A stretch of DNA of 64,000 bases, taken from assembly GCA_965197285.1 (NCBI GenBank), contig OZ240092.1, positions 2,660,280 to 2,724,279 of the forward strand, read 5' to 3'. Numbering within the stretch: the first letter of the stretch is position 1; each line of letters begins with the position of its first letter. Below, in pieces: positions 3,567-63,199 of the stretch. The position numbers were made by a program, and so were the translations under genes. A model generated the notes under the pieces. It saw only the letters and a list, made by a program, of their open reading frames with translations, did not search any database and was not told the DNA's origin. The stretch is from Acidobacteriota bacterium (GTDB lineage: Bacteria; Acidobacteriota; UBA6911; RPQK01; CBDAPI01).

Positions 3567-4019
3567 TGCAGAGCCGTCCTGCGAGCTCGGCAGTTCTGCC
3601 GGTCACCAGCGATGTCGGTCCTCGCCCTATCAGTTCTCATCGCCCGATGGCCAAGCCCTGGCGGGCCCTTCTCTCCTTTCCGAGCACACAGTCGAACTCA
3701 ATCTCAGGGTGGGGAGATTGAGATATCCGGTTTCAGAATAGAAGATCGCAGTGCCGGAAGGAAGCCTGGCTAAGCCGCTCAAGAAATTAACCGCCTCGGC
3801 TGACTCGACTGATTAGCCCTTTAAAGACGCGCCTGGGCCTCACAGCCTGGAAAACTCAATAGCCTCCACGGCGGCCTGGCGGTGGACCGAGACTAGTACG
3901 GCTCTCCACTTGAAACTGGCCCGGCATGAGGTAAGATCGCATTCAAAGAACTCGACTCGCGCCCCGCAGGAGGAATGTAACCACACCGGTCAGCTGCAAC
4001 CTGCGATCGGAATGACTCA

Positions 4020-4937
4020 ATGAAAGTGGCTAGACAGCTCTGGATTACCCCCCTGGCCATCATTGGTTTGCTGGCATTCTTCTGGCAAGTTGGAGCCCTG
4101 GAGATCTCTCGGGATTCTGAGATGTGGGCGTGGGCGCGGGCTCTGCGAGTCTCGCCGGCCACTTTACAGCACTATTCCTCGGAATTGCGTGACAGTCTAG
4201 ATCCGGAAAGGGTGGCCGCTCAGAGGCTCCAGCCCCACTCCCATGACGACTGGCAAGCCGGCATTGAGCTGGTAGAGGATGAGGAGACGGGTGTCTTCTT
4301 ACACTTTGCTCACCTTGGCGACGGCGAGTTTCCGGGAGAGGACCGCCCCTTCCAGACCACCTACACAATGGCTCACAATTCCAGCCTTCAAGAGCCGATT
4401 AATGGAGTCCTGGAGTTCTTCGATGATCAGGGGAATCCCCAGGAATTGGAGATTGCTGGTACGACGGCTTCGCAGTTCCCGTTCCGCCTGGCTCGTGGCC
4501 AGGTGAAGAGGTTTGTGACATCAGGAGCCGGTCCCTTGAAGAACGGCTGGGCTCGCATCCGAGCGGAACAGCCGATCGTCGCGACTTCGAGTTTCGGGAT
4601 CATTCGCGAAGACGGGACCGTGATTACCGACGTTGGAGTGGGTGAATCCGTTGTGGCTACGAAATTTACGATCTTTGCCGACACTACTGAAGACAGAAAC
4701 ACCGGGCTGGCGCTGGCCAATCCAAACCGGGCCCAGACGATCTCGGTCCAACTCACGCTGCGGGACACCGGCGGCACCACGGTGTCGCAGACAGAGATCG
4801 AGCTGGAGCCTCTCGGGCACGTCGCGAGGTTTGTCGATGAATTGTTCCCCCGGGTCGCGAACATCGACGAGCTCGAAGGCACGATTCTTCTCGAGTCAGT
4901 CTCGGAAAGCCTCCCCGGCCGCAGCGATTTCCGGTGA
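4020..4937 (+). CDS. secreted repeat-domain protein, N-terminal part (probably one gene with 4633..7053, joined across a frameshift near 4905-4935)
   Basis: Signal-peptide-like N-terminus. Its module GWARI...IFTIRDSG...LTLRD is repeated in the next ORF and in 14989..16296. Confidence 0.5.
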   Translation: MKVARQLWITPLAIIGLLAFFWQVGALEISRDSEMWAWARALRVSPATLQHYSSELRDSLDPERVAAQRLQPHSHDDWQAGIELVEDEETGVFLHFAHLGDGEFPGEDRPFQTTYTMAHNSSLQEPINGVLEFFDDQGNPQELEIAGTTASQFPFRLARGQVKRFVTSGAGPLKNGWARIRAEQPIVATSSFGIIREDGTVITDVGVGESVVATKFTIFADTTEDRNTGLALANPNRAQTISVQLTLRDTGGTTVSQTEIELEPLGHVARFVDELFPRVANIDELEGTILLESVSESLPGRSDFR

Positions 4938-35670: not shown

Positions 35671-36559
35671 ATGCCCTTTGACTCCCTGCGGTTCCGCAAG
35701 TCCTGGCGGCCCTATCAACAGCGCGTGCTGGACGCGATTGATCAGCACCTGGACGACGATCGATTGCATGTGGTGGCGGCTCCAGGGGCAGGCAAGACGA
35801 CCCTGGGGCTGGAAGTCTTTCGGCGGCTCGGCAAACGCACTCTGGTTCTTTCCCCGACACGGGTCATCCGAGATCAGTGGATCCATCGACTGGACGATTT
35901 TCTCGAGGGCGGAAAAGCGTCCGGGAGGGAATGGGTGAGTCGGAACATCAGGGAACCCGGCCTGTTTACATCGATCACCTATCAGGCTCTGCATGTGCAC
36001 TTTGCGGAGCAGCTGGCTGAAGAAGATCTCGAGCAATTGGACGACGACGCAGCTGTCGCCATGCTGGATGAGGAGGAATTATCGGAGACTGAACTGAACG
36101 GTTTCATCGACGCGCTGAAAAAGCATGAAGTGGGGGTGATCATCCTAGACGAGGCCCATCATCTTCGGAGGGAATGGTGGCGCGCTCTGGAAAAAGTATG
36201 CGAAGCCCTGCCGGAAATCGTGCTGGTTTCACTGACGGCCACGCCCCCCTATGACGCTCCCGGGCACGAGTGGGGGAAATATGAAAGACTTTGCGGTCCC
36301 ATCGACGAAGAGATCTCCGTGCCGGAGCTGGTCAAGGCCGGAACTCTATGCGCTCACCAGGATTACATCTGGACGGTGGACGTCAGTGCGAGCGCCAGAA
36401 AGCGGATACGCGAATACGACGAACGGGTGTCGACCCTTTGCAACACGCTTTTTCAGGACCAGGTTTTCCAGGAGATCATTCTCGCCCACTCCTGGCTGGG
36501 GGAGACCGTCGATGAGCGAGAGGTGATCAAACAGCCCCGTATCGCTGTCGCGCTGCTAG
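35671..36559 (+). pseudogene. SF2 helicase gene, 5' fragment (motifs I-III), cut by IS1380-like copy 1
   Basis: Walker A AAPGAGKTT, motif II ILDEAHH, motif III SLTATP. The ORF runs into the IS left inverted repeat and stops inside it. Confidence 0.7.
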
Positions 36560-38211
36560 CCCGGATTATGCAAGAGATCTAAATTCAAGCGAGATTTGGG
36601 CCCAGAAAAAAGGCCGTAGCTCTCTGATATAAAAGGGTTTAGAGAAACAATGACCCTAAACAGGAGCTACGGCAATGTCAAAAACAGTCTGCCAGAATAC
36701 CCTGCCATTTCATAGCCACAGAAACATCACGGCTCGTTTTGATGGGGGGAGCCTCACTTCCGACGCAGGATGGTTGTTGTTTGGATCCCTGGATCGTCAA
36801 CATCGATTGTGCGAGGGCTTCAGTTCGTGTATTGCGGAAAGTCGAGACCGACGCTACGTTCGTCATGACCTGTTGAAGTTGATCCGACAACGAGTCTTGC
36901 AGATCGTGGCCGGCTACGAAGACTGTAACGACGCCGATACGCTGCGCTCGGATCCGATGCTCAAGACCGTCTGTGATCAGTTGCCAGAGAGCGATCCCGA
37001 TTTGGCCACCCAGCCGACTTTCTCCCGCCTGGAGAACTCCGTCACCAAGAAGGATCTGATGCGTCTGAGCCGGTGGCTGCCAGGCCGTTATGTGCGCTCC
37101 CTGAAGAAGAGACGTCCCAGCAAGATCATCCTGGATCTGGACAGTACCGACGACCACACTCACGGCCAACAGGAGTTCTCCTTCTACCACGGGTATTACC
37201 GAAACCACATTCTGCATCCTTTGCTGATCTTCGATGCCGACACGGGAGACCTGGTCTGTGCCGTGTTGAGACCTGGCAACAAGGGGGCTGCCTCTCACAT
37301 CGTGCCCATTCTGAAGCGAGTCGTGGAGGCCATCCGACAAGCAGTGGGGACGGATGTCGAGATTGAGATTCGGGCCGACAGCGGCTTTGCCACGCCTCGG
37401 CTCTACGAGTTCTGTGAATGTGAAGAGAATAAACTCCAGTATGTCATTGGGTTAAGTCGAAACCCTCGCCTGCAGCGAGTGGTCGAGCCCCTGCTGGATT
37501 CGACTCGGCTGAGGTTCCTTGAGCTGGAGGAAAAACAGCGTCAGTTTGACGAGTTTCTTTATCGAGCCCACAGCTGGGATCGATCCCGTCGCGTCATTGT
37601 CAAAGTGGAGGTCGATCAGCGTGGCATCAATCGTCGCTTTGTAGTTACCAACCGGGACGATCTCTGCTCCCAATCACTTTATGACCACTACACAAACCGA
37701 GGGCAGACCGAGAACTTCATCAAGGCCTTCAAGAATCATCTGAGCATGGACCGACTCAGCTGTCATCGATTCCTGGCCAATCAGTTTCGACTCCTCCTGC
37801 ATGCACTGGCTTACCAGATGTTCGTGCGCCTGCGCGACTATCTTCACGGAACCCCCTGGCACAAGCTCGAAATCGAAACCTTACGTCGTCGGGTCCTCAA
37901 GATTGGGGCCCGGATCCGACAAACCACTCGACGCATCTGGGTCCATCTTTCCTCAGCCTTCCCCGAACAACCCCTCTTCCACCTCGTCTTGAGTCGCCTG
38001 AACTCCAGTTAGCTTTTCCCAGCTCCCCCGAAAAACCGCTTCCGACACTCATCCAGGCCCAGATCTGTCTGAAATTCACTCCCCAAACCACTCAAACGCC
38101 TCGCCAACCCATATTCTTCGCAAATCCGCCTGTCACACCTGCCCGCTTCCGAGTTGGGCCACTTCTCGAGTCGTTTTTCAACACCGAACTACGGTTCTTG
38201 CATAATCCGGG
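36560..38211 (+). mobile_element. IS1380-like insertion sequence, copy 1 (1652 bp) with 4-bp CTAG target duplication
   Basis: Inverted repeats CCCGGATTATGCAAGA...TCTTGCATAATCCGGG. CTAG at 36556-36559 and 38212-38215. Confidence 0.8.
36675..38012 (+). CDS. DDE transposase, IS1380-family-like (445 aa)
   Basis: N-terminal ...GGSLTSDAGWLLF...QIVAGYEDCNDADTLRSDP motif. The 445-aa size and the element's CC termini fit IS1380/IS4-like elements. Confidence 0.75.
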   Translation: MSKTVCQNTLPFHSHRNITARFDGGSLTSDAGWLLFGSLDRQHRLCEGFSSCIAESRDRRYVRHDLLKLIRQRVLQIVAGYEDCNDADTLRSDPMLKTVCDQLPESDPDLATQPTFSRLENSVTKKDLMRLSRWLPGRYVRSLKKRRPSKIILDLDSTDDHTHGQQEFSFYHGYYRNHILHPLLIFDADTGDLVCAVLRPGNKGAASHIVPILKRVVEAIRQAVGTDVEIEIRADSGFATPRLYEFCECEENKLQYVIGLSRNPRLQRVVEPLLDSTRLRFLELEEKQRQFDEFLYRAHSWDRSRRVIVKVEVDQRGINRRFVVTNRDDLCSQSLYDHYTNRGQTENFIKAFKNHLSMDRLSCHRFLANQFRLLLHALAYQMFVRLRDYLHGTPWHKLEIETLRRRVLKIGARIRQTTRRIWVHLSSAFPEQPLFHLVLSRLNSS

Positions 38212-38215
38212 CTAG

Positions 38216-40026
38216 CGTTTCTGAAGGCGCGCCAACTTCCGATCTCAGCCGCTTTGATGGGGATGCTGGACCTCACGGTTGACGACATTCCTGACCTGGG
38301 CAGGCACTGGTGGCAGACGCTGGTGGAGACCGTGCTGTTTTCCAGTACGTTCGAGCATTCCGATGAGCACCAGGGTTTCGTCGCTCGACTGAGAAGACAG
38401 CTGATCGCCTCCGAGTTGTTACGGAAACGGGAGCTGTCACTGGAACGATCCAGGCGAATGAACCGATCCTTGTCTCTCAGTTCGTCCAAAATTGACGCCT
38501 GCATCGCGATTCACCAACTGGAACAGAAACACCGTGGGGATCAACTGCGACAGGTGGTTTTGACAGACTACATCCGGGACGAAAAGTTGAAGAGCGGACT
38601 CGACACCGGAGAAATCAATCTGGGTGCCTGGCCGGTTTTCAAGGGTCTGATCAAGGCGTCCGCCCATCCCGAGCGGATTGCCCTGCTGACGGGACGGATC
38701 CGCGTAATTCACGAAAGCCTGCTCCGGAATCTGCTGCACGAAGTAGAGCGCGAACGATTCAGCGTCGGGCCGATCGGACCCGGCGGTACGTACCGAAGGG
38801 TCACCGGACCGCTCAACCAGTTGACGGGTGCCTTCACGTCATTGTTGATGCGGGGGGATATTCACGCGCTGGTAGGCACGCGTGCTCTGCTTGGAGAAGG
38901 TTGGGACGCTCCGGCTGTCAACTCACTGGTGCTGGCCAGTGCGGTCGGGTCGTTCATGCTGACCAATCAGATGCGGGGGAGGGCGATCCGGGTGGACAGG
39001 CAGGCGCCTGAGAAAATCAGCTCAGTCTGGCACCTCGTAGCGATTGACGTGAAGAGCTACAGCGGCCTCGGTAATCTGCATGACCTGCAGCAACGCTTCG
39101 AAACATTCGTGGGATTGTCGGAATGGGGTCCCACGATCGAGAGCGGGTTTCGACGCATGAAGGCAACTGGTTTTGATTTGCTTCAGACTTATGAAAGCCG
39201 TGACATGGCTGCTTCCAGTAACAACAGGCAGATGACGAAACGGTATGAGCAACTGCCGTCGGTAGCCGAACGCTGGAAGAAGGCCCTGACCATCGACGAC
39301 GGCGCCAGGGTGCTGCCGTCTGTTGTGACGCCCACGGTGCCGGGTTTGCGGTCCTATCACTTCAGGAACACACTCAAACACCTGCTTTTTCAACTGATTG
39401 CCGCGCTGGCGGGCGTCGCGTCCCTGATCCTGGCGATCGGCAGCAACAGTCTGAAGGGCTTTCTCTTGTCGGGAGGGATCCTCTGCCTGGGAGCGTTGCT
39501 GTACAGGCTTCCGAGGACGATCGCCCTGGTGCGCATTCTCTTCAAACACCTCCCTGTTGACGGGGCATTGAAACAAATAGGCGTGGCTTTGAATCACGCC
39601 CTGTGTCAGGCAGGGTTTATCGAAACCTCGATTCGCCGCACCCGGGTGACCTGCTGCGAGGGCCAGGACGGAACGTTTTCACTGGGTTTGTCAGGAAGCA
39701 CGTTTTATGAATCGTCCCTGTTCGCCGACTGCCTCGCTGAAATCCTGGGTCCGATCGACAAACCCAGATATATGGTCGTGCGCGAAGGCACCGTGTTCGG
39801 CTTGGACCGGGACGACTATCATGCTGTACCTCTCAAGCTGGCCGCAAGAAAGGACACGGCGAAGATATTTTACGAAGCGTGGTGCCGCTACGTGTGTCCA
39901 ACTGAGTTGATTTACACGCGCAACGATGAAGGCCGGAAACGTCTGGTGAAAGCAAAGATGCAGGCGTTTTCTTCGATCTTCGAAAGTCAGGTCAAACGCC
40001 AGGATCGCTGGCAGGCAGCCCCCTAG
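38216..40026 (+). pseudogene. SF2 helicase gene, 3' fragment (helicase-C motifs IV-VI plus a roughly 300-aa C-terminal region with a TM segment)
   Basis: Motif VI QMRGRAIR. Removing the IS and one CTAG copy restores the reading frame with 35671..36559 (..IAVALLAFLKARQLPISAALMGMLDLTV..). Confidence 0.7.
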
Positions 40027-46630: not shown

Positions 46631-46789
46631 TTTACCCGCCGTATCGACCCCGACAGGCGCGATCGATATTTCTGTAATTTCTGAATAAACTATATGTTCG
46701 GTTATAAATGTTTGCATGTCAACTCCCGATCTGCATGTCAACTCCCGAGTTGACGGGCCCGGACCCGAGGGAGCAAGCTGGTGCGCTAG

Positions 46790-48442
46790 CCCGGATTATG
46801 CAAGAACCGTAGTTCGGTGTTGAAAAACGACTCGAGAAGTGGCCCAACTCGGAAGCGGGCAGGTGTGACAGGCGGATTTGCGAAGAATATGGGTTGGCGA
46901 GGCGTTTGAGTGGTTTGGGGAGTGAATTTCAGACAGATCTGGGCCTGGATGAGTGTCGGAAGCGGTTTTTCGGGGGAGCTGGGAAAAGCTAACTGGAGTT
47001 CAGGCGACTCAAGACGAGGTGGAAGAGGGGTTGTTCGGGGAAGGCTGAGGAAAGATGGACCCAGATGCGTCGAGTGGTTTGTCGGATCCGGGCCCCAATC
47101 TTGAGGACCCGACGACGTAAGGTTTCGATTTCGAGCTTGTGCCAGGGGGTTCCGTGAAGATAGTCGCGCAGGCGCACGAACATCTGGTAAGCCAGTGCAT
47201 GCAGGAGGAGTCGAAACTGATTGGCCAGGAATCGATGACAGCTGAGTCGGTCCATGCTCAGATGATTCTTGAAGGCCTTGATGAAGTTCTCGGTCTGCCC
47301 TCGGTTTGTGTAGTGGTCATAAAGTGATTGGGAGCAGAGATCGTCCCGGTTGGTAACTACAAAGCGACGATTGATGCCACGCTGATCGACCTCCACTTTG
47401 ACAATGACGCGACGGGATCGATCCCAGCTGTGGGCTCGATAAAGAAACTCGTCAAACTGACGCTGTTTTTCCTCCAGCTCAAGGAACCTCAGCCGAGTCG
47501 AATCCAGCAGGGGCTCGACCACTCGCTGCAGGCGAGGGTTTCGACTTAACCCAATGACATACTGGAGTTTATTCTCTTCACATTCACAGAACTCGTAGAG
47601 CCGAGGCGTGGCAAAGCCGCTGTCGGCCCGAATCTCAATCTCGACTCCCGGCCCCACTGCTTGTCGGATGGCCTCCACGACTCGCTTCAGAATGGGCACG
47701 ATGTGAGAGGCAGCCCCCTTGTTGCCAGGTCTCAACACGGCACAGACCAGGTCGCCCGTGTCGGCATCGAAGATCAGCAAAGGATGCAGAATGTGGTTTC
47801 GGTAATACCCGTGGTAGAAGGAGAACTCCTGCTGACCGTGAGTGTGGTCGTCGGTACTGTCCAGATCCAGGATGATCTTGCTGGGACGTCTCTTCTTCAG
47901 GGAGCGCACATAACGGCCTAGCAGCCACTGGCTCAGACGCATCAGATCCTTCTTGGTGACGGAGTTCTCCAGGCGGGAGAAAGTCGGCTGGGTGGCCAAA
48001 TCGGGATCGCTCTCTGGCAACTGATCACAGACTGTCTTGAGCATCGGATCCGAGCGCAGCGTATCGGCGTCATTACAGTCTTCGTAGCCGGCCACGATCT
48101 GCAAGACTCGTTGTCGGATCAACTTCAACAGGTCATGACGAACGTAGCGTCGGTCTCGACTTTCCGCAATACACGAACTGAAGCCCTCGCACAATCGATG
48201 TTGACGATCCAGGGATCCAAACAACAACCATCCTGCGTCGGAAGTGAGGCTCCCTCCATCAAAACGCGTCGTGATCTTTCTGTGGCTGTGAAATGGCAGG
48301 GTATTCTGGCAGACTGTTTTTGACATTGCCGTAGCTCCTGTTTAGGGTCTTTGTTTCTCTAAACCCTTTTATATCAGAGGGCTACGGCTTTTTCCTGGAG
48401 CCAGAATCTCACTCGGATTCAGATCTTTTGCATAATCCGGGC
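46790..48442 (-). mobile_element. IS1380-like insertion sequence, copy 2 (inverted relative to copy 1) with CTAG target duplication
   Basis: Same inverted repeats as copy 1. CTAG at 46786-46789 and about 48443-48446. Transposase about 98% identical to copy 1. Confidence 0.8.
46989..48326 (-). CDS. DDE transposase, IS1380-family-like
   Basis: 445 aa. Differs from copy 1 at a handful of residues (KITTRF, QWLLGRY, GPGVEIE). Confidence 0.75.
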   Translation of the reverse strand: MSKTVCQNTLPFHSHRKITTRFDGGSLTSDAGWLLFGSLDRQHRLCEGFSSCIAESRDRRYVRHDLLKLIRQRVLQIVAGYEDCNDADTLRSDPMLKTVCDQLPESDPDLATQPTFSRLENSVTKKDLMRLSQWLLGRYVRSLKKRRPSKIILDLDSTDDHTHGQQEFSFYHGYYRNHILHPLLIFDADTGDLVCAVLRPGNKGAASHIVPILKRVVEAIRQAVGPGVEIEIRADSGFATPRLYEFCECEENKLQYVIGLSRNPRLQRVVEPLLDSTRLRFLELEEKQRQFDEFLYRAHSWDRSRRVIVKVEVDQRGINRRFVVTNRDDLCSQSLYDHYTNRGQTENFIKAFKNHLSMDRLSCHRFLANQFRLLLHALAYQMFVRLRDYLHGTPWHKLEIETLRRRVLKIGARIRQTTRRIWVHLSSAFPEQPLFHLVLSRLNSS

Positions 48443-48444
48443 TA

Positions 48445-50304
48445 GTGGGATTGATGGCCGGGTGTGGCAGAATCGCGCAGAGTCTGGTCGCAGCCGCGGC
48501 GGTGGCCGTGGTCCTGGCGCAGTCTCCCGAAGATTACCTCAAGCAGGCCGATGCCATGGCGGCGCGCCATGAAGTGGACCGGGCCATTGAGATTCTGCAC
48601 AGAGGACTCCAGGCCTTTCCCCGCCATCCCGATGTGCTGACCCGGCTCGGTCTTCTACTGATCGGGGCGGGCCACCTGGAGGCCGGCGATGAGATTCTCT
48701 CCCGAGCCTTGGCCATTCGCCCGCTGGATCGCCGGGCTCTTCAGGGGCGGGCAGAAGCACAACTTCGGCAGGGAGCCCTGTCGGAAGCAGCCGGCTTGTT
48801 CGAGCAAGCCCTTGACCAGCGATCCTCGGACGGGCACATGCGTCATCGGCTGGCGTTCACGCTCTTCGCTCAGGGAAACGATCGCGAAGCTCTCGTCCAG
48901 GCTCGCAAGAGCGTAGAAAAGGTGCCCCTCAGCGTTCCTTACCGGCGCTTCTACGCCTTTCTCCTGCACCTTCAGGGCAAGGCGGACGAATCTCTCGGGC
49001 AGCTGCGAATGGCCTCCAGCCTGGATCCGACCGATATCTCGACGCTGGACGTTCTGAGCCTGCGGGAGTGGCGGGAGGGAAACAGGGACAAAGCGATAGA
49101 GCTGGCAGAGCAGAGGGTCCGACTCGATCCAGAGAACCCTCTGGGTCATCGGACTCTTCATCGGTTCTACCAAGAGATCGGTCGAAGCGAGGATGCGGTC
49201 CGGGCAGAGGAAGCGTGGACGAAGCACCAGGCCGCCTTCGACCTTTACCTCGAGGCTCTTCACGAAGCCGCCCAGGGGCGCCTGGATCAAGCCCACCGGC
49301 TGCTCCGGGAGGCGTTGCAGGTCGCGCCCGACTTCACGACTGCCAAGTTGTATCTGGCGGCTCTGTATTCGCGCCGCGGCGAAGACGACCCGGCGCTGCA
49401 GCTGTACTCCGAGATCCTGAGCAAGCAGCCGACTCAGGCGGTGGCCGTGTCGGAAAGCGCCCGCATCCGTCTCGCTCAAGGATCAGTCGACCTGGCTCTG
49501 TCGACGCTGGAATCAGGCGGTGCCCGAGGTGAGAACGTCGAACTGCTGCGGGGCTACCAGGCCATGCAGCAAAGAGAGTTCCGCACCGCCCTCTCCCATT
49601 TCGAGAGAGTTCGAGCCACCAATCCCCTGCTGCCCGGCCTCCTGCAGCTGGTCGCCTTCTGCCTCAACGAGCTGGGTGATCATGAGGACGCCCTCGAGAA
49701 GCTGGCCATGGCCGCCCGGGTCTCCCCTGCCCAGGCAGAAATTTACTCTCAGGCGGCGGAGATCCAGTTTCAGAAAGCGCAGGCACTGCAGGGTCAGGGA
49801 CGCTGGCGGGACGCCATCGCGAGTTACGAGTCGTTGATTGAGACGACCTCACTACGGGCCGACTACCTGTTGAACCTGGGATACTGCCACCAGCGATTGG
49901 GTCAGCTGGATCAGGCAGTCACTCAGTATCGCAAGGCCCTCAAAATCGAGCCCGGGGCCAGCTGGGCGCGTCTGAACCTTGCTTCGGTTCTCTATCTTCA
50001 GCAGGAGTACGGCCTGTCCGCCGCCGAGTGGCAGACCCTGATCAAGAATGAGCCTTCCGCCCAGTCCTACCACCAGCTCGGTCTCTGCCTCAGTCACCTG
50101 GCCCGTCATCCCGAGGCTGAGCGCGCTTTTGAAAAAGCCCTCTCCCTGGGCGATGACTCTCCCCGGCTGCTTTACGACCTCGGCGTGTGCAGGCTCCGCC
50201 TCAGAAAGAAAGAGTCGGCCTGGCCCTTGATCAATAAAGCGGCCCGGGCCGGCTATCTCCCGGCCCTGCAGCTTTTGGAGCAGGCCAGGGGGCGGCGGCG
50301 GTAA
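48445..50304 (+). CDS. secreted TPR-repeat protein
   Basis: Signal peptide then about 14 TPR-like helical repeats. The GTG start is immediately adjacent to the IS target duplication. Confidence 0.7.
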   Translation: MGLMAGCGRIAQSLVAAAAVAVVLAQSPEDYLKQADAMAARHEVDRAIEILHRGLQAFPRHPDVLTRLGLLLIGAGHLEAGDEILSRALAIRPLDRRALQGRAEAQLRQGALSEAAGLFEQALDQRSSDGHMRHRLAFTLFAQGNDREALVQARKSVEKVPLSVPYRRFYAFLLHLQGKADESLGQLRMASSLDPTDISTLDVLSLREWREGNRDKAIELAEQRVRLDPENPLGHRTLHRFYQEIGRSEDAVRAEEAWTKHQAAFDLYLEALHEAAQGRLDQAHRLLREALQVAPDFTTAKLYLAALYSRRGEDDPALQLYSEILSKQPTQAVAVSESARIRLAQGSVDLALSTLESGGARGENVELLRGYQAMQQREFRTALSHFERVRATNPLLPGLLQLVAFCLNELGDHEDALEKLAMAARVSPAQAEIYSQAAEIQFQKAQALQGQGRWRDAIASYESLIETTSLRADYLLNLGYCHQRLGQLDQAVTQYRKALKIEPGASWARLNLASVLYLQQEYGLSAAEWQTLIKNEPSAQSYHQLGLCLSHLARHPEAERAFEKALSLGDDSPRLLYDLGVCRLRLRKKESAWPLINKAARAGYLPALQLLEQARGRRR

Positions 50305-54705: not shown

Positions 54706-56244
54706 ATGTTGTTGCTGGGCATAGACTGCGGGACCCAGGGACTGAAGGTGATTTCCTGGGACAGCGAGGCGAACCGCATCTGCACAGAAAGCCGCTCCTA
54801 CCATCTCATCAAGGGTCTTCCTCCCGGGCACAAGGAACAGCATCCACAAATCTGGATCGAAGCGCTGGAAGAATGCGTAGCCGCGCTCCAGGGGCGGGGT
54901 CTGGATCTCTCCCGGATCGACGGAATCGGCGTGTCGGGGCAGCAGCACGGATTCGTAGCGCTGGACAAAGAGCATGAGGTGATCCGCCCGGCCAAGCTTT
55001 GGAATGACACCAGTACAGCCCCCCAATGCGAGCAGATCATGGCCGCGGCCGGGGGCTCGCGGTCCTACCAGGAGGAAATCGGCAATCTCCTGCCTCCCGG
55101 GTACACGGCCTCGAAGATACTCTGGCTGAAACAGACGGAACCCGGGAACTACCGCCAACTTCGTCACGTCCTGCTGCCCCACGACTACTTAAACTTCTTT
55201 TTGACCGGGGAACTGGTGGCGGAGTGCGGGGATGCATCAGGAACCGGGTACTTCAAGGTGCTCCAGCGCGAGTGGTCTAAGGAAGCTCTCGGCTGGATCG
55301 ACCCCGAGATCGACCTGCCGGCCTGCCTCCCTCGCCTGGTGGACTCTCATCGCCCCGCCGGCGGCCTGCGTCCCCAACTGGCTCAAAAGTGGGGAGTCTC
55401 TCCCAAAACTCTGGTCAGCTCCGGCGGCGGCGACAATATGATGGGGGCCATCGGATCGGGCAACGTCCGCGAAGGAATCGTGACCGTAAGCCTGGGAACC
55501 TCCGGAACGCTGTTTGCGCATTCCGATACACCGGTAATCGATCCGCAAGGCGAGATAGCGGCTTTTTGCGGAAGTACGGGGGGCTGGCTGCCACTGGGGT
55601 GCACCATGAATGTCACAGTAGCCACCGAGGCCGTGCGTGCCGGCATCCTGAAGTGCTCTTTAGAGCAGTTCGAGAGCCACCTGGTCTCAACGCCACCCGG
55701 GTCGGATGGACTGATTCTGCTTCCCTATCTGGACGGAGAACGCATGCCCAACACCCCCGAGGGTACCGGGACAGCCGTTGGTCTCAGGGGCTCAACCGCC
55801 ACTCCGCGGCATCTGGCCCGGGCAGCGGTCGAAGGTGTCACGTTCGGGCTTCGCTACGGCTTCGATCGGCTTCGAGAGCTGGGCACCGCTGCCGGACAAA
55901 TCTGCCTGATCGGCGGCGGCTCCAGGAGTGCGGCCTGGCGTCAGATTGTGGCTGACGTCTTTGCCACAACGGTGGTGGCTCCGGTGGTTGAGGAAGGACC
56001 CGCCTTTGGAGCGGCTCTGCAGGCCGGGTGGTGTCTCGGCGGTGGCTCGATCCAGGATCTCGTCAGCGACTTCTGCCAGCTGGATCCCGACAAGGAATGC
56101 CAGCCGAACCCGGAGAACCGCGAGAAATACGAGGAGACTTACCAGTTGTACTGTCGGCTCAGCGACGAGCTTCGCCGCTCGTCGCTTTTCCCGGCTCACC
56201 GGAAACTGATCAGCAACCCCGGCTCACTTTCGCAGGTGCCATAA
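54706..56244 (+). CDS. xylB: xylulokinase (FGGY family)
   Basis: N-terminal [14 protein letters not shown] and full FGGY N and C domains. Sits immediately upstream of xylA. Confidence 0.8.
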
Positions 56245-56267
56245 CGTTTCTTTTTTCTGGAGCACTC

Positions 56268-57425
56268 ATGTACCAACCCCGCAAGACAGATCGTTTTACC
56301 TTTGGCCTTTGGACCGTCGGCAACCCTGGAAGGGATCCTTTCGGGGAGCCGGTCCGCCCCCCCCTTGCCCCGGTTCGGATCGTCCAGAAGCTGAGCGAAC
56401 TGGGTGCCTGGGGCGTCAACTTCCATGACAACGACCTGGTACCGATCGACGCCACTCCGGAGCAGGCGAAGCAAATTGTCTCGGATTTCAAGCAGGCCCT
56501 CGGGGACTACGACATGTGTGTTCCCATGGCCACCACAAATTTATTCACGGATCCGGTTTTCCGCGATGGAGCCTTCACCTCGAGTGATGCGCGAGTCCGC
56601 TCCTACGCCCTGCAGAAAACGATGCGCGCCATTGACCTGGGAACACAGCTGGGCGCCGGTACTTATGTCTTCTGGGGAGGCCGGGAGGGGAGCGAGGTCG
56701 ATGCGGCCAAAGATCCTGCCGAAGCCCTGAAATGGTTCCGCGAGAGCCTGAACTTCCTGCTCGCTTATGTGAAGGACAACGGCTACGACTTGAAATTCGC
56801 CCTGGAAGCGAAGCCCAATGAGCCCAGGGGAGACATTTATCTTCCCACTACGGGAGCCATGCTCGGCTTCATTGCCACCCTGGACGATCCTTCCAGGGTG
56901 GGGGTCAACCCCGAAGTGGCACACGAACAGATGGCAGGACTGAACTTCTACCACGCCGTGGCGCAGGCCTGGGAGAGCGGGAAGCTGTTTCACATTGACC
57001 TCAACGATCAGAAGCCGGGACGCTTTGACCAGGATCTCCGCTTCGGGTCTGAGAACATCAAATCGGCTTTTTTCCTGGTGAGATTCCTGGAAAAAGTGGG
57101 CTATCGGGGGCCTCGTCACTTCGACGCCCACGCCTTGAGAACCGAGGACCCGGAAGGGGTCTGGGACTTCGCCGCCGGATGTATGCGCACCTATCTGATC
57201 CTGAAGGAAAAGGCCAGACAGTTCGAGCAGAACGCTGAAATTCGGGAGTTGGTCGCCGGCCTGAAAGGAGAAGAGAGTGACCTCTGGAACGAACAGATCC
57301 CCTACTCTTCCGAGAACGCCCGCCGCATTCTCAACACCGACTGGGACCGCAGAGCCCTGGCCAATCGGCCCCTGGCCTGCGAACGGATCGATCAGCTGAC
57401 CGTGGAACTGCTGCTGGGGGTCTAG
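56268..57425 (+). CDS. xylA: xylose isomerase (short actinobacterial-type, about 385 aa)
   Basis: [27 protein letters not shown]-terminus, conserved FHDNDL and WGGREG motifs. The ORF track extends upstream to 56028. Confidence 0.9.
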
Positions 57426-57644
57426 GCGGAATTCCAGATATTCCAAATTATTCGCTTCGCTCATTGTGTGTCAGCGACGCGGTCAACTGGGTCTTTACGT
57501 CAAGATGCACTAACCCGGATTATGCATGAGATCTGAATCCGAGTGAGATTTGGGCCCAGAAAAAAGGTAAATATTCGGTAAACCCATCCCTCCGCTGACA
57601 CCATCAGATTTTGCTGGACACAGGACTTTCAATCGTGTATATAG

Positions 57645-59282
57645 GTGGACATGGGAGCCGCCCTAGGTCAGGGGGAGCAAGGCGTAGAGAATCGGGAGTC
57701 CCGGCAGCGGGCGTCGACAGCCGGCGTTCAGATCCGGGTGGATAAGGAGGAGTACATCAGCTTGCGTTGGGCTGCGGCGTACTGGAAGGCCCGGCACGGG
57801 GAAGCGGTCCGACGGAGAACCGATCTCAAGAGCGAAAACGAAGAGCTACGGGCACGCATTCGAGAGTTGGAAGGCTGTCTGTACGGTCGTCGTAGCGAGC
57901 GTTTGGTCTGCGAGGGCAAGAGCCCATCCCGGAGCCAGGTCTCAGCGCGCCCTCGCGGACAGCAGCCGGGGACGCGGGGACATGGTCGAAGCAGTCTGGA
58001 TGGGCTGGAAGCCCGGGAGGAAGTGGCTGATCTGCCCGCAGAGCAGCGGAAGTGTCCCCGCTGCGGACGGCGCCTGGATCCGTTTCCTGGTACCGATGAG
58101 GCCCAGGTGGTAGAGATCGAGACGCGGGTCTGGCGTCGGGTGATCAGACGCAGGCGATACCATCCAAGCTGTGCTTGTGGGGTCCTGCCCGGCATCGTGA
58201 CGGCGCCGTCACCAGGCCGTTTGATCCCGCGCGGCAAGCTGGGCATCTCGGTGTGGGTGAGGGTGATCTTGGACAAGTATCTTTATGCGCGTCCCAGCAA
58301 CCGACTGCTGCAAGAACTGGCCGACCAAGGAGTGAGGCTGTCGGCTGGGACGATCGCGGGAGGGCTGAGGAAACTGCTCCCGCTGTTGGAGCCGGTCCGG
58401 GAGGCCATCCGTGTCAGGCAGTTGAGCGAGGATCGTTGGCAGGCTGACGAGACCGGCTGGCGGGTGTTCGAGGAGGTGGAGGGCAAGATAGGTCACGGCT
58501 GGCATCTGTGGGTGTTCCGATCCCCTTCGACGGTAGTGTTCACGCTGTCTCCCAGCCGCTCGGCCCAGGTGCCGGAGGCGCACTTCGGAGGCACTGCGGC
58601 CGGCATTCTGCTGAGCGACCGCTACGTTGTGTACAAGAAGTTGGCCAGACAATGGGAGGGTCTGGAGTTGGCCTTTTGCTGGGCCCACGTGCGACGCGAC
58701 TTTTTTTCCCTGGCCAAGTCCTGGCCCGAGTTGGAGGGGTGGGCGATGAGTTGGGTGGAGGGGATCGGAGGCCTGTTCGATCTGAATCGGTGTCGCGTGC
58801 AGGCCCGAGAACAGCCTGCCGGCTTTGCCGCCCGGGATCGGGAACTGCGGGGGGCGGTGCTGGGACTGGAGAGGCAGCGCGATGCGGAGTTGCAGAGCCG
58901 GGTCCTGCATGGGGCCTGCAGGAAGGTGCTGCGCCGATTGGAGCGACACTGGGAAGGGTTGACCGTCTTTTTGGATCACCCCGAGGTGGCCATGGACAAC
59001 AACGCTTCAGAGCGCGCTTTGCGAGGCCCGGTGGTGGGTCGCAAGAACTACTACGGCTCAGGCAGTCGGTCTAGCGCCCGTCTGGCCGCGGTTGTGTTCA
59101 CGATTCTGCAAACCTTGCAGCTGTGGGAGATCAATCCGCAACGCTGGTTGAGTTGCTATCTGCAGTGCTGCGCCGAATCGGGCAACCGGGCGCCGCCCCA
59201 ACTGACGAGATTCCTGCCCTGGGAAATGGACCCCGACCGAAGAGCGGCCTGGGGTCGACCCGGTGGTCGGGAGGCGGCATGA
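57645..59282 (+). CDS. IS66 family transposase TnpC
   Basis: Leucine zipper, Zn-finger CPRCGRRL, DETGWRV, CWAHVRRDF and DNNASERALRG motifs. Confidence 0.85.
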   Translation: MDMGAALGQGEQGVENRESRQRASTAGVQIRVDKEEYISLRWAAAYWKARHGEAVRRRTDLKSENEELRARIRELEGCLYGRRSERLVCEGKSPSRSQVSARPRGQQPGTRGHGRSSLDGLEAREEVADLPAEQRKCPRCGRRLDPFPGTDEAQVVEIETRVWRRVIRRRRYHPSCACGVLPGIVTAPSPGRLIPRGKLGISVWVRVILDKYLYARPSNRLLQELADQGVRLSAGTIAGGLRKLLPLLEPVREAIRVRQLSEDRWQADETGWRVFEEVEGKIGHGWHLWVFRSPSTVVFTLSPSRSAQVPEAHFGGTAAGILLSDRYVVYKKLARQWEGLELAFCWAHVRRDFFSLAKSWPELEGWAMSWVEGIGGLFDLNRCRVQAREQPAGFAARDRELRGAVLGLERQRDAELQSRVLHGACRKVLRRLERHWEGLTVFLDHPEVAMDNNASERALRGPVVGRKNYYGSGSRSSARLAAVVFTILQTLQLWEINPQRWLSCYLQCCAESGNRAPPQLTRFLPWEMDPDRRAAWGRPGGREAA

Positions 59283-60157
59283 AGCGCTACTGTGGCCGCA
59301 ACTTCACGGGTCAGGAGATCGGGCAACTGTGCGACTTGATTGCCGACAACCCAACCCGCACGCGCGCTCAGCTGTCTCGATTGGCGTGCCGATTGCTTGA
59401 GTGGCGCAAAACGGACGGTGGCCTCAAGCAGATGAGCTGCCGGGTGGCCATGCTGCGCATGCATCGCGAGGGGCTGCTGCAACTGCCGCCCCCTCGCAAC
59501 CGCAAAGGAGGCTCGGGCCGAATCGAGCACACTTTCTGCAGCGCCCCGCAGCCGCTGCTGTCCCGGCCGGTGCATGAGCTGGCAGGCCTGCATCTGGAGC
59601 CGGTCCTAAGCCGCCCGGACTCCACTTTGTGGAATGAATATATCGACCGCTACCACTATCTGGGATACAAGCCCCTGCCCGGTGCTCAGCTGCGCTACTT
59701 CGCTTGTTCGGAAAACCGCATCCTGGCTCTGCTCGGCTTTGGCGCCGCCGCCTGGAAAACCGCCGCGCGCGACCGCTTCATCGGCTGGCGTCCTTCGGAA
59801 CGGGAGAGGAACCTGCAGCTGATTGTCAACAACGCCCGTTTCTTAATCCTGCCCTGGGTCGAGTCCAAGAACCTGGCCTCCAAGCTACTGGCCATGGCCG
59901 CCCGTCAACTCCCCGAAGACTGGCACAATCGCTACGCCTACCGACCTGTCTTGCTGGAAACCTTCGTCGACACTCAACGCTTCACAGGTGCCTGCTACAA
60001 GGCTGCCAACTGGATCCATGTCGGCCACACCCAAGGGCGCGGAAAGCTGGATCGTAACCACCAAGCCAATCTACCCACCAAGAGCATCTGGCTCTACCCC
60101 TTACGCAAAGACTTCCGCTGTTCGGTTAAGCAACCGTTTTTCTGTAATTTCCTTTAG
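59281..60157 (+). CDS. uncharacterised passenger protein resembling the DUF4338 family (start overlaps tnpC stop as ATGA; C-terminus altered by the IS256 insertion)
   Basis: Motifs ...YIDRYHYLGYKPLPGAQLRYF...LGFGAAAWKTAARDRFIGW...ANWIHVGHTQGRGKLDR. Family assignment is from memory only. Confidence 0.5.
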
Positions 60158-61343
60158 AGAAGGATTTCTCCACCTGTTTTTTCCAGCCGGCCAGGTTCAG
60201 GTATTGGCGGCCGGTTAACCACTCCTCGTGTATCTCTGCAATCACAGCTGAGATGAGCCGCATCGCTGAGGCTTCGTTGGGAAAGATCCCCACCACCCGG
60301 GTTCGTCTCCGGATCTCCCGGTTCAGTCTCTCCAGTCCGTTGATGGTCCGGATCCTTCGCCACCAGCTCCTCGGAAAATCAAACACCGTGAGCCCTTCAT
60401 CCACGTTTTCTTCGAGCCACGTAACGAACTCTGGCGCAATCTTTTCGAATTTCTTGATCACCTTCCCCTTGAGCTCCTCGGCATCCTCTCGAGACGGCGC
60501 ATTGAAGATGTCGCGCAGGGCCTGTGCAATCCGCTGCCGGTCTTCTTTACGACGGGCATATTGCTGAGCATTCTGGCTCAGATGAAACTGGCAGCGGTTC
60601 CAGGGCACTGACGGATAAACCGCTCGCCTGGCCGCCTTCAATCCCGCATGATCATCGCTGACTAACAGCTCGACTCCTCTCAGCCCCCGCCTGTGCAGAT
60701 CCGCCAGAAACTCTCGCCAATGCACTTCTGCTTCGCTCAGCCTGGCGCTCAGACCCAACACCTCTCGCGTGCCGAAACGGTTGATTCCCATGGCTTTCAG
60801 GATAGCCACGTCCTGTACTCTGCCGCCCTTTCGAACCTTCTCGTAGTGGGCATCTAAGTACACGATCGGATACTCCCCCAGCTCTCGGCTTCGAAACTCC
60901 TCCAGCCCTTCGTCCAACATCCCGGCCACTCTCGAGACCTGGGTGGCCGAGATCTCCAGACCACACAACTGCTCGGTAACCTCGGTAACCTTTCTGGTCG
61001 AGACTCCCATCACGTACATCTCGGCGATGGCCAGTTTCAATGCCTTCTCCGAACGGCAGCCTCGCTCCAGCGACTTCGGATAAAAACTCAACCCTCGAAC
61101 CTGGGGAATTTCCAACCGCAGCTCTCCAACCCGGGTCTGTATCCGCTTGCCTTTGAATCCGTTCCGATACCCTCGTCGGTTCTCCGTCCTCTCGTAGGCT
61201 TCCGCTCCCAAGAACTCGCTTCTTTCCAACTGCATGGCCACGTTGAACAGCTTCTCCAAGATCCCTCGAAAGGCTTCTGTTCCTTCCTCGATCAACTCCT
61301 CCAGAATCTCTCGTGGTACTCTCTTTTCCAGGTCTGGGTTCAT
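60126..61343 (-). CDS. IS256 family (mutator-type) transposase
   Basis: MNPDLEKRVPREILEELIEEGTEAFRGILEKLFNVAMQLERSEFLGAEAYERTENRRGYRNG is the canonical IS256 transposase N-terminus, followed by a DDE region. Confidence 0.85.
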   Translation of the reverse strand: MNPDLEKRVPREILEELIEEGTEAFRGILEKLFNVAMQLERSEFLGAEAYERTENRRGYRNGFKGKRIQTRVGELRLEIPQVRGLSFYPKSLERGCRSEKALKLAIAEMYVMGVSTRKVTEVTEQLCGLEISATQVSRVAGMLDEGLEEFRSRELGEYPIVYLDAHYEKVRKGGRVQDVAILKAMGINRFGTREVLGLSARLSEAEVHWREFLADLHRRGLRGVELLVSDDHAGLKAARRAVYPSVPWNRCQFHLSQNAQQYARRKEDRQRIAQALRDIFNAPSREDAEELKGKVIKKFEKIAPEFVTWLEENVDEGLTVFDFPRSWWRRIRTINGLERLNREIRRRTRVVGIFPNEASAMRLISAVIAEIHEEWLTGRQYLNLAGWKKQVEKSFSKGNYRKTVA

Positions 61344-61445
61344 GGATTCTCCTTTCCAGATTTGCGTTTCTGTTTTTGGAGAAATCCTGTCCCAGACCTC
61401 TGTCTTTTCGACTTAGGCCTGACCAGAATTTACAGAAAAAAAGTT
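60140..61445 (-). mobile_element. IS256-family insertion sequence, copy 2 (boundaries approximate)
   Basis: Imperfect terminal inverted repeats sharing the core TTTTTCTGTAA at about 60143 and 61425-61447. About 100 nt leader before the transposase start. Confidence 0.5.
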
Positions 61446-61600
61446 ACACTACTCTGTTCCCTGCGCTCAACTTGAGTTTCCCTGTAACCCAACGCTCGAG
61501 ATTACGCTTACGGGTTTACCGAATATTTACGAAAAAAGGCCGTAGCTCTCTGATATAAAAGGGTTTACATAAACAACGACCCTAAACAGGAGCTACGGCA

Positions 61601-62938
61601 ATGTTGAAAGCAGTCTGCCAGAATACCCTGCTATTTCACAGCCACCGAAAGATCACGGCGCGTTTTGATGGGGGGAGTCTGACTTCCGACGCAGGACGGT
61701 TGTTGTTTGGATCGCTGGATCGGCAACATCGGTTGTGCGAGGGCTTCAGTTCGTGTATTTCGGAAAGCCGGGACCGACGCTACGTTCGTCATGACCTGTT
61801 GAAGTTGATTCGACAACGAGTCTTGCAGATCGTGGCCGGCTACGAAGACTGTAATGACGCCGATACGCTGCGCTCCGATCCGATGCTCAAGACAGTCTGT
61901 GATCAGTTGCCCGAGAGCGATCCCGATTTGGCCACCCAGCCGACTTTCTCCCGTTTGGAGAACTCCGTCACCAAGAAGGATCTGATGCGTCTGAGCCAGT
62001 GGCTGCTAGGCCGTTATGTGCGCTCCCTGAAGAAGAGACGTCCCAGCAAGATCATCCTGGATCTGGACAGTACCGACGACCACACTCACGGTCAGCAGGA
62101 GTTCTCCTTCTACCATGGGTATTACCGAAACCACATTCTGCATCCTTTGCTGATCTTCGATGCCGACACGGGCGACCTGGTGTGTGTCGTGTTGAGACCT
62201 GGCAACAAGGGGGCTGCCTCTCACATCGTGCCCATTCTGAAGCGAGTCGTGGAGGCCATCCGACAAGGAGTGGGGACGGATGTCGAGATTGAGATTCGGG
62301 CCGACAGCGGCTTTGCCACGCCTCGGCTCTACGAGTTCTGTGAAGGTGAAGAGAATCAACTCCAATATGTCATTGGGTTAAGTCGAAACCCTCGCCTGCA
62401 GCGAGTGGTCGAGCCGCTGCTGGATTCGACTCGGCTGCAGTTCGTTGAGCTGGAGGAAAAACAGCGTCAGTTTGACGAGTTTCTTTATCGAGCCCACAGC
62501 TGGGATCGATCCCGTCGCGTCATTGTCAAAGTGGAGGTCGATCAGCGCGGGATCAATCGTCGCTTTGTGGTCACCAACCGGGACGATCTCTGCTCCCAAT
62601 CACTTTATGACCACTATACAAACCGAGGGCAGACCGAGAACTTCATCAAGGCCTTCAAGAATCATCTGAGCATGGACCGACTCAGCTGTCATCGATTCCT
62701 GGCCAATCAGTTTCGACTCCTCCTGCATGCACTGGCTTACCAGATGTTCGTGCGCCTCCGCGACTATCTGCACGGGACTCCCTGGCACAAGCTCGAAATC
62801 GAAACCTTACGTCGTCGGGTCCTCAAGATCGGGGCCCGCATCCGACAAACCACTCGACGCATCTGGGTCCATCTTTCCTCAGCCTTTCCCGAACAACCCC
62901 TCTTCCACCTCGTCTTGAGTCGCCTCAACTCCAGCTAG
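61601..62938 (+). CDS. DDE transposase, IS1380-family-like (copy 3; MLKAV start variant)
   Basis: 445 aa, about 97% identical to copies 1 and 2. Confidence 0.75.
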   Translation: MLKAVCQNTLLFHSHRKITARFDGGSLTSDAGRLLFGSLDRQHRLCEGFSSCISESRDRRYVRHDLLKLIRQRVLQIVAGYEDCNDADTLRSDPMLKTVCDQLPESDPDLATQPTFSRLENSVTKKDLMRLSQWLLGRYVRSLKKRRPSKIILDLDSTDDHTHGQQEFSFYHGYYRNHILHPLLIFDADTGDLVCVVLRPGNKGAASHIVPILKRVVEAIRQGVGTDVEIEIRADSGFATPRLYEFCEGEENQLQYVIGLSRNPRLQRVVEPLLDSTRLQFVELEEKQRQFDEFLYRAHSWDRSRRVIVKVEVDQRGINRRFVVTNRDDLCSQSLYDHYTNRGQTENFIKAFKNHLSMDRLSCHRFLANQFRLLLHALAYQMFVRLRDYLHGTPWHKLEIETLRRRVLKIGARIRQTTRRIWVHLSSAFPEQPLFHLVLSRLNSS

Positions 62939-63199
62939 CTTCTCCCAGTTCCCCAAAAAACCGCTTCCGATACTCATCCAGGCCCAGATCTGTCTGAAAT
63001 TCACTCCCCCAACCACTCAAACGCCTCCCCAACCGATATTCTTCGCAAATCCGCCTGTCACACCTGCCCGCTTCCGAGTTGGGCCACTTCTCGACTCGTT
63101 TTTCAACACCGGACTACGGTTTTTGCATAATCCGGGCTAACGAGCCGTCGACAGTATCCCCAATTCCAAAGTTGTTGCCGGTTTTCAAACTGCCGAGTA

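Follow-up and report, generated by a model that had tools for sequence, protein, structure and literature searches.

The 64,000-nt stretch of DNA analysed here (the window; positions 2,660,280–2,724,279 on the forward strand of contig OZ240092.1, Acidobacteriota bacterium GCA_965197285.1) contains an IS66-type insertion sequence (IS) with two overlapping genes: tnpC, which encodes the transposase, and a second open reading frame (ORF2) of the DUF4338 family. The element spans positions 57567–61530 (3964 bp), its native form being 2628 bp. A left inverted repeat at 57567, proposed in a first-pass annotation made from the letters of the window, is borne out by the sequence GTAAATATTCGG that begins there and by a perfect 19-nt partner at the other end (Table 1); the terminal 12-mer recurs at one other place in the window, on the minus strand at 61519–61530. 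The same annotation had ended the element at 60157, which is the stop of a chimeric reading frame made by a nested IS256-family insertion, the true right end being 61530. The repeats begin GTAAATATTCG, and together with the 8-bp duplication that flanks them they give the 5'-GTAA inverted repeats and target duplication of the IS66 family; a sequence identical to the left repeat bounds elements in other genomes. The duplicated octamer, GAAAAAAG, is present once and uninterrupted at 36605–36612 in the first of the window's IS1380-family copies, providing a paralogous empty site. A sister copy of the element on another public contig (L086) is itself uninterrupted, has the exact length of our reconstruction (2628 bp), differs from it at 7 nt, is flanked by a different duplication (CCTCAGTT) and codes for a 286-aa ORF2. 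We are practically certain that the element is a complete IS66-family insertion sequence with the anatomy described here, and it has been recently active.

The first-pass annotation had recognised the tnpC product as an IS66 transposase by a zinc finger, a DDE domain and a DNNxSERALRG motif. The DDE_Tnp_IS66 catalytic domain is indeed matched by PF03050 (3e-58, cut-off 23.1) and the whole family by NCBIfam transpos_IS66 NF033517 (2e-89, 300 bits, cut-off 180), the motif is present as DNNASERALRG, and the CxxC...CxC zinc-finger stretch gives a weak zf-IS66 match (E 0.3, residues 133–176). Protein P0390 (543 aa) is 100% identical to the product from the ATG at 57651, the start taken by gene callers, which lies 84 nt from the left repeat; the distance of 78 nt given earlier is that of the GTG at 57645. 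Only 78–84 nt are therefore available between the repeat and tnpC, leaving no room for tnpA or tnpB, and tblastn of the window with a TnpA and a TnpB returned nothing below E 0.2, in agreement with the earlier description of an element without either gene. Canonical IS66 elements (IS66, ISRm14, IS679) share with this one the DDE_Tnp_IS66 domain with its zinc-finger stretch, the DNNxSER motif, GTAA ends, an 8-bp duplication, a size of about 2.6 kb and ATGA-type coupling of adjacent genes, but have the order tnpA-tnpB-tnpC, whereas the window element has neither tnpA nor tnpB upstream of tnpC and carries after it the 286-aa gene whose product is predicted below to be a GNAT enzyme like Mom of phage Mu. 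The ISBst12 group of the IS66 family consists of tnpC-only, single-ORF elements, likewise devoid of tnpA and tnpB and with tnpC near the left end; the window element differs from that group by a conserved second ORF coupled to tnpC.

ORF2 starts within the last codons of tnpC, through an ATGA stop/start overlap at 59279–59282 that the first-pass annotation had also noted, and the GGGAGG that lies 4 nt upstream of its ATG, inside the 3' end of tnpC, would act as its Shine-Dalgarno sequence. Its assignment to DUF4338, made earlier from short motifs that are all present, is confirmed by a hidden Markov model search (PF14236, 166.7 bits against a cut-off of 27, profile positions 5–226 of 297), as is the statement that this family also holds DruA, PF14236 now being named 'DruA'. 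Instead of the length of about 290 aa given before, the native protein has 286 aa, of which the window copy retains the first 282. The IS256-family insertion swaps the last 4 codons for 10 foreign ones, with the chimeric stop at 60155–60157, and joining position 60123 to 61460 restores a 286-aa protein ending in FRCSLRST, next to FRRSLRST in the closest homologue. Codon 163 (59765–59767) encodes Ala in the window copy (TAARDRF) and Pro in L086 and in more than 90% of homologues (TAPRDRF). Because of Ala163 and the IS256-family insertion, the window copy of ORF2 may be beginning to decay.

Predicted fold of the ORF2 protein and its likeness to phage Mu Mom

An AlphaFold2 model of ORF2, built from 54 sequences with a mean predicted local distance difference test score of 83.6, has a β-hairpin and three helices resembling a helix-turn-helix (HTH) at residues 1–65, and a GNAT-type α/β core at about residues 100–275. 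The first-pass annotation had left the fold of the second reading frame to structure prediction, and it missed the Mom-like GNAT nature that the model brings out alongside the N-terminal helical domain. The best match found by Foldseek in the PDB is phage Mu Mom (8bv8; E 9e-6, TM-score 0.59 on the target), followed by numerous other GNATs, such as TmcA and NAT10/Kre33, which are RNA cytidine acetyltransferases. Among viral models in BFVD the matches comprise Mom (among the top), NAT_SF proteins and phage 'homing-endonuclease-like' proteins with this domain; a domain similar in structure to the ORF2 core is present in many phage proteins of about 500–700 aa whose annotation is 'endonuclease-like' or 'homing endonuclease', which is another tie between the ORF2 fold and nucleases of mobile DNA. 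At the level of sequence, PHROG 1384 ('Mom-like DNA modification protein') matches ORF2 at E 2.9e-5, the ORF2 family profile finds only chance matches among the sequences of solved structures (E 0.75 or worse), and its comparison with a single Mom sequence is insignificant.

Mom uses Gly-tRNA(Gly) to aminoacylate the N6 of adenine in double-stranded DNA, and a putative active site of seven residues has been assigned to it (PMC13219725). A weak alignment of the ORF2 and Mom profiles, employed for residue correspondence only and backed by the structural match, places ORF2 H126, Y127, R187, S201, D231, R234 and Y240 on Mom H58, Y59, R111, S124, D149, R151 and Y159. Counted in 112 representatives of clusters at 50% identity, fusions included, conservation is complete for R187 (112/112) and nearly so for S201 (111), H126 and Y240 (110 each), falling to 100 for Asp or Glu at 231, 94 for Y127 and 88 for R234. 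Near-invariance of Mom-equivalent residues favours catalytic activity over a role as a scaffold. The Q/RxxGxG/A motif that binds the pyrophosphate of acetyl-coenzyme A (CoA) is SKNLAS in ORF2 and aligns with RNSES in Mom. The two proteins thus have in common the GNAT core, the seven aligned putative active-site residues and an NxxS in place of the CoA-binding glycine motif; they differ in that Mom has an HTH-like insertion and ORF2 an N-terminal helical domain, in a sequence likeness that stays below family thresholds, and in context, which for Mom is a phage late operon with com and for ORF2 a transposon. By fold and residue pattern ORF2 is predicted to be a Mom-like GNAT enzyme, and the sole functional remark on DUF4338 that our literature search returned, which describes it as a GNAT domain that some DndF proteins carry as a fusion, points to the same fold (PMC10853773).

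Recurrence of the gene pair and its transposase partners

The search for ORF2 homologues gave at least 8000 matches, with lengths that cluster at 284–286 aa, and many of them lie on contigs of 2.6–2.7 kb, the size of a whole element. At least 565 relatives are found in species-representative genomes, with a range that takes in Acidobacteriota, Gamma-, Alpha- and Deltaproteobacteria, Myxococcota, Verrucomicrobiota, Nitrospirota, Chloroflexota and Firmicutes, and the tnpC–ORF2 pair itself was found in at least 8 phyla. IS66 tnpC lies directly upstream of ORF2 in 71 of 82 surveyed loci, overlapping it by 4 nt in 64 (62 ATGA, 2 GTGA), and in 79 of the 82 the ORF2 gene is paired with a transposase. 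The GTAAATATTCG termini are kept from Acidobacteriota to Gammaproteobacteria and Desulfobacterota. A 2642-bp relative is present in about 35 copies in one long-read Acidobacteriota genome (CBDFLV01), and perfect 8-bp duplications that differ from copy to copy flank at least 21 of these. The suggestion that TnpC–DUF4338 pairs might be a distinct and recurrent IS66 subgroup is upheld by the 71 loci and by termini conserved across phyla: this is a widespread two-gene subgroup. At loci of the L037 type in the Acidobacteriota metagenome-assembled genome (MAG) CBDFLV01, some copies have non-matching flanks whose 8-mers recur at other copies (CAAGAAGA at L008, L016 and L019; CCTTATCA at L016 and L034), the pattern left when recombination between IS copies inverts or rearranges the DNA.

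Ratios of non-synonymous to synonymous substitution rates (dN/dS) of 0.12–0.24 for ORF2, against 0.21–0.31 for tnpC, indicate that ORF2 is under purifying selection, and across phyla ORF2 is about 62% identical where tnpC is about 40%. 'Passenger', the label under which the first-pass annotation had introduced the gene, is probably the wrong word for one that is more conserved than the transposase and appears to be selected for its product. When the window element is compared with the 2642-bp type, DNA identity is about 60% for tnpC (dS 1.5) and about 90% for the ORF2 core (dS 0.5). The mosaic is seen against L001 (3281–5922) and L036 (2302–4919), with identical 19-nt ends in the two Acidobacteriota IS lineages. 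A divergent tnpC beside a similar ORF2 core and identical ends indicates recombination or module exchange between IS lineages.

Fusions extend the association to other transposases. Scanned with HMMER, 1.84 billion representatives yielded 9170 relatives at E ≤ 1e-3, and among the best 150 of these all 15 checked proteins longer than 670 aa are in-frame transposase fusions, the partners being Tn5-like (Tnp_DNA_bind, DDE and Tn5 dimerisation domains; 5 proteins), DDE_Tnp_1 (5), IS66 TnpC (3), DDE_3/IS630-like (1) and ISAzo13 (1). In P0181 (563 aa) the ORF2 domain is joined to a Tn5-type Tnp_DNA_bind domain, and a plasmid gene annotated 'ISAs1 family transposase' has an N-terminus that matches the C-terminal half of ORF2. 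Fusions to domains other than transposases are rarer, with an adenylate/guanylate cyclase domain in P0250 (594 aa) and with DUF6788 in P0152 (431 aa).

Among close ORF2 relatives the arrangement of the genes varies as well, a minority having tnpA and tnpB in addition to tnpC and the DUF4338 gene. In a four-gene variant from a Nitrospirota MAG (L081 3199–6426, and L082) the order is tnpA-tnpB-DUF4338-tnpC with 4-nt overlaps, and the right end, the only one mapped, reads ...TTACCGGCAACTCAC without the GTAAATATTCG terminus. ORF2 is placed before tnpC in L073, and downstream of divergent IS66 transposases in L054 and L055. In L062 and L069 a DDE_Tnp_1 (IS4-like) transposase is followed by a DUF4338 gene whose product is 63% identical to the window ORF2; the former (2181–4935, Eubacteriales MAG) is an element of about 2.75 kb with perfect 24-nt inverted repeats, CCTGAGATTCGGAGTACGTCCCGG, unlike those of the window element. 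On the Thiodictyon plasmid pTs485 (L083, 3986–8758) a DUF4338 gene, 52% identical, stands beside a site-specific integrase and IS91- and IS4-family transposases; on either side of the inserted cluster lies a fragment of a DUF2235 gene, and, the gene table of the plasmid being incomplete, a tnpC pseudogene is possible there.

Possible role of ORF2 in transposition

Several unrelated transposase families have this domain next to them or as a fusion partner; its role is therefore probably in transposition and not in phage defence. On balance we favour the reading that the second gene encodes an integral, transposition-linked enzyme. The ATGA coupling would allow the ORF2 protein to be made in step with the transposase, and, as gene fusions imply joint work, the two may act together, in cis on the transposition complex. 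The biochemical role we infer is the catalytic transfer of acyl or aminoacyl groups to nucleic acid, with transposon-end or target DNA as the likeliest substrates. Transposition would be modulated in this way, the marking of ends being one example; that the substrate is DNA we put forward only tentatively. Host Dam methylation controls IS10, IS50 and IS903, DNA modification at the ends coupling transposase action to replication. There the modifier is a host enzyme, whereas the window element would supply its own, so that the comparison is a hypothetical functional analogy only.

Several observations weigh against this reading. ORF2 does not reach membership of the Pfam Mom family (PF25680; E 1e-3, 17.3–19.1 bits, gathering cut-off 27.1), and hhalign of its profile with a 31-member Mom alignment is weak (E 0.016, probability 2.8%). 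The essential HTH-like insertion of Mom (about residues 175–209) has no counterpart in ORF2: the alignment stops at Mom 160 and ORF2 251, and the approximately 35 ORF2 residues that remain hold no helical insertion. A GNAT fold alone cannot separate DNA, RNA, protein and small-molecule substrates, a point on which the authors of the Mom study agree (PMC13219725). The ends also differ among elements with ORF2 proteins about 60% identical, as in L062, and for this reason ORF2 is not a sequence-specific reader of GTAAATATTCG ends; we set that candidate function aside, since ORF2 proteins just as similar are found where the ends are unrelated. Lastly, the gene is also carried by elements that have tnpA and tnpB, so it is not a simple functional substitute for them.

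The last point bears on the idea, raised in the first-pass annotation, that the accessory protein replaces TnpB. In its general form ORF2 would be a non-catalytic DNA-binding or adaptor subunit standing in for TnpA and TnpB and aiding the assembly of TnpC on the ends, as could be read from the lack of both genes in window-type elements, from the N-terminal HTH-like three-helix domain (with a weak match to the PaaX winged helix, E 0.05) and from the unusual conservation of both ORF2 and the terminal 11 nt. The Nitrospirota elements in which tnpA, tnpB and ORF2 stand together weaken it, and a pure adaptor is made very unlikely by near-invariant Mom-equivalent residues in 112 diverse members and by ORF2 proteins of about 60% identity whose elements are unrelated in both their ends and their transposases. 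As a protein acetyltransferase ORF2 might act on the transposase, or on a host factor of the nucleoid or of replication, and so adjust transposition to the metabolic state through acetyl-CoA; the structural matches to its GNAT fold include many N-acetyltransferases of proteins and small molecules, transposase fusions would fit modification in cis, and the conserved residues look catalytic. We consider such a role unlikely, because the best matches are nucleic-acid-modifying GNATs, with Mom first and TmcA and NAT10 high, and because the canonical acetyl-CoA motif is replaced by SKNLAS. A GNAT toxin of the AtaT/TacT kind, which would acetylate aminoacyl-tRNA and stabilise the IS as an addiction module, is suggested by the binding of charged tRNA that such toxins have in common with Mom (PMC13219725), which ORF2 resembles. 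With no antitoxin gene inside the 2628-bp element, about 35 intact copies coexisting in one genome, and in-frame fusions to transposases, a toxin appears extremely improbable.

A further reading is a selfish cargo apart from the chemistry of transposition, be it a Mom-like anti-restriction modifier or a DruA-like defence component. NCBI names several ORF2 homologues 'Druantia anti-phage system protein DruA'. Druantia was reportedly described by Doron et al. in 2018, and we know of no function proposed for DruA or DUF4338 since that description. DruA of type I Druantia belongs to the same Pfam family (PF14236) as ORF2, but has about 400 aa against 286, whereas ORF2 sits in an IS, coupled to a transposase and without druB–E. 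Against the PADLOC DruA model ORF2 scores 18.6 bits (E 2e-4) over 85 residues only, a match to a profile and not to an authentic DruA. The operon of druB, druC, druD and a large DruE helicase is not found: around ORF2 there are the transposase, further IS elements and xylose genes, no ORF of the window exceeds 806 aa, which leaves none of DruE size, and at related loci unrelated genes are the neighbours. Defence cargo, which the first-pass annotation had entertained, is not supported, given the weak match to the DruA profile, the sizes of the ORFs in the window and the fusions to at least 5 transposase families, and the 'Druantia DruA' labels on IS-borne proteins are probably over-annotation, which would inflate counts of defence systems in IS-rich genomes. 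Anti-restriction has in its favour that Mom, which ORF2 resembles, shields phage DNA from restriction (PMC7261163, PMC13219725). An IS moving within one genome would gain little from it, however, and a pairing with transposases at 79 of 82 loci, together with translational coupling conserved across phyla, leaves cargo of either kind quite improbable.

As a class the element is nothing unusual; what stands out is the accessory enzyme and the range of transposase families that it accompanies. Full-text literature contained no IS66–DUF4338 element and no DUF4338 protein as a transposase partner, a novelty that is provisional as ISfinder and TnPedia were not covered, and a widespread IS66 variant with a transposase-linked, Mom-like enzyme has apparently gone undescribed so far. 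To our knowledge few accessory functions of DDE transposases are known, and a domain coupled or fused to IS66, Tn5/IS4, IS630-like and ISAzo13 transposases, with a match in ISAs1, points to a general, undescribed layer of control or chemistry in transposition. The Mom-like residues give a handle on DUF4338/DruA, which becomes directly testable as a modification enzyme. A far-reaching and rather doubtful extension would have thousands of ISs, of at least 5 DDE families, encode their own Mom-type DNA-hypermodifying enzyme that marks ends or target DNA, possibly from a charged-tRNA donor, with DruA a domesticated relative that marks self DNA; if true, it would amount to a self-encoded epigenetic switch for transposition and provide the first mechanistic hypothesis for DruA.

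The nest of insertion sequences

The element lies within a nest of three insertion sequences (Table 1). It sits in the third of three IS1380-family copies in the window, some 50 nt in from the left end; the three are 96–98% identical, about 1.66 kb long and each provided with a 445-aa transposase; the terminal repeats of this third copy are at 57511–57526 and 63124–63139. The IS256-family element, with imperfect terminal repeats at 60132–60151 and 61426–61445, interrupts the IS66-type element in turn at a point defined by the uninterrupted sequence of L086. Its target duplication (CGCTGTTC/CTCTGTTC) matches at 7 of 8 positions, or is a perfect 6-bp CTGTTC. The order of events is that the IS66-type element jumped into an IS1380 copy and was later struck by the IS256-family element.

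Table 1. Coordinates of the IS66-type element, its genes and the insertion sequences nested with it.
Feature	Position in window	Strand	Remarks
IS1380-family copy 1	36556–38217	+	
IS1380-family copy 2	46784–48445	-	
IS1380-family copy 3, left terminal fragment	57510–57566	+	aligns with left ends of copies 1 and 2
Left 8-bp target-site duplication, GAAAAAAG	57559–57566		identical to 61531–61538
Left inverted repeat, GTAAATATTCGGTAAACCC	57567–57585	+	19 nt, 100% complementary to 61512–61530
tnpC, IS66-family DDE transposase	57651–59282	+	543 aa from ATG; 545 aa from GTG 57645
Candidate Shine-Dalgarno, GGGAGG	59269–59274	+	read from sequence
ORF2, native part	59279–60123	+	residues 1–282 of 286; PF14236 8.7e-49
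IS256 target duplication, left copy, CGCTGTTC	60116–60123		
Nested IS256-family element	60124–61451	-	transposase 60126–61343, 405 aa; PF00872 4e-109, NF033543 8e-106
IS256 target duplication, right copy, CTCTGTTC	61452–61459		left copy at 60116–60123
Displaced 3' end of ORF2	61460–61475	+	third base of codon 282, codons LRST, TGA stop
Right inverted repeat, GGGTTTACCGAATATTTAC on + strand	61512–61530	-	perfect 19-nt partner of 57567–57585
Right 8-bp target-site duplication, GAAAAAAG	61531–61538		identical to 57559–57566
IS1380-family copy 3, remainder	61531–63139	+	transposase 61601–62938, NF033539 6e-113; about 96% identical to copies 1 and 2

Directly upstream of the nest are a xylulokinase-like ORF (54706–56244) and a xylose-isomerase-like ORF (approximately 56250–57425), both named from their translations alone.

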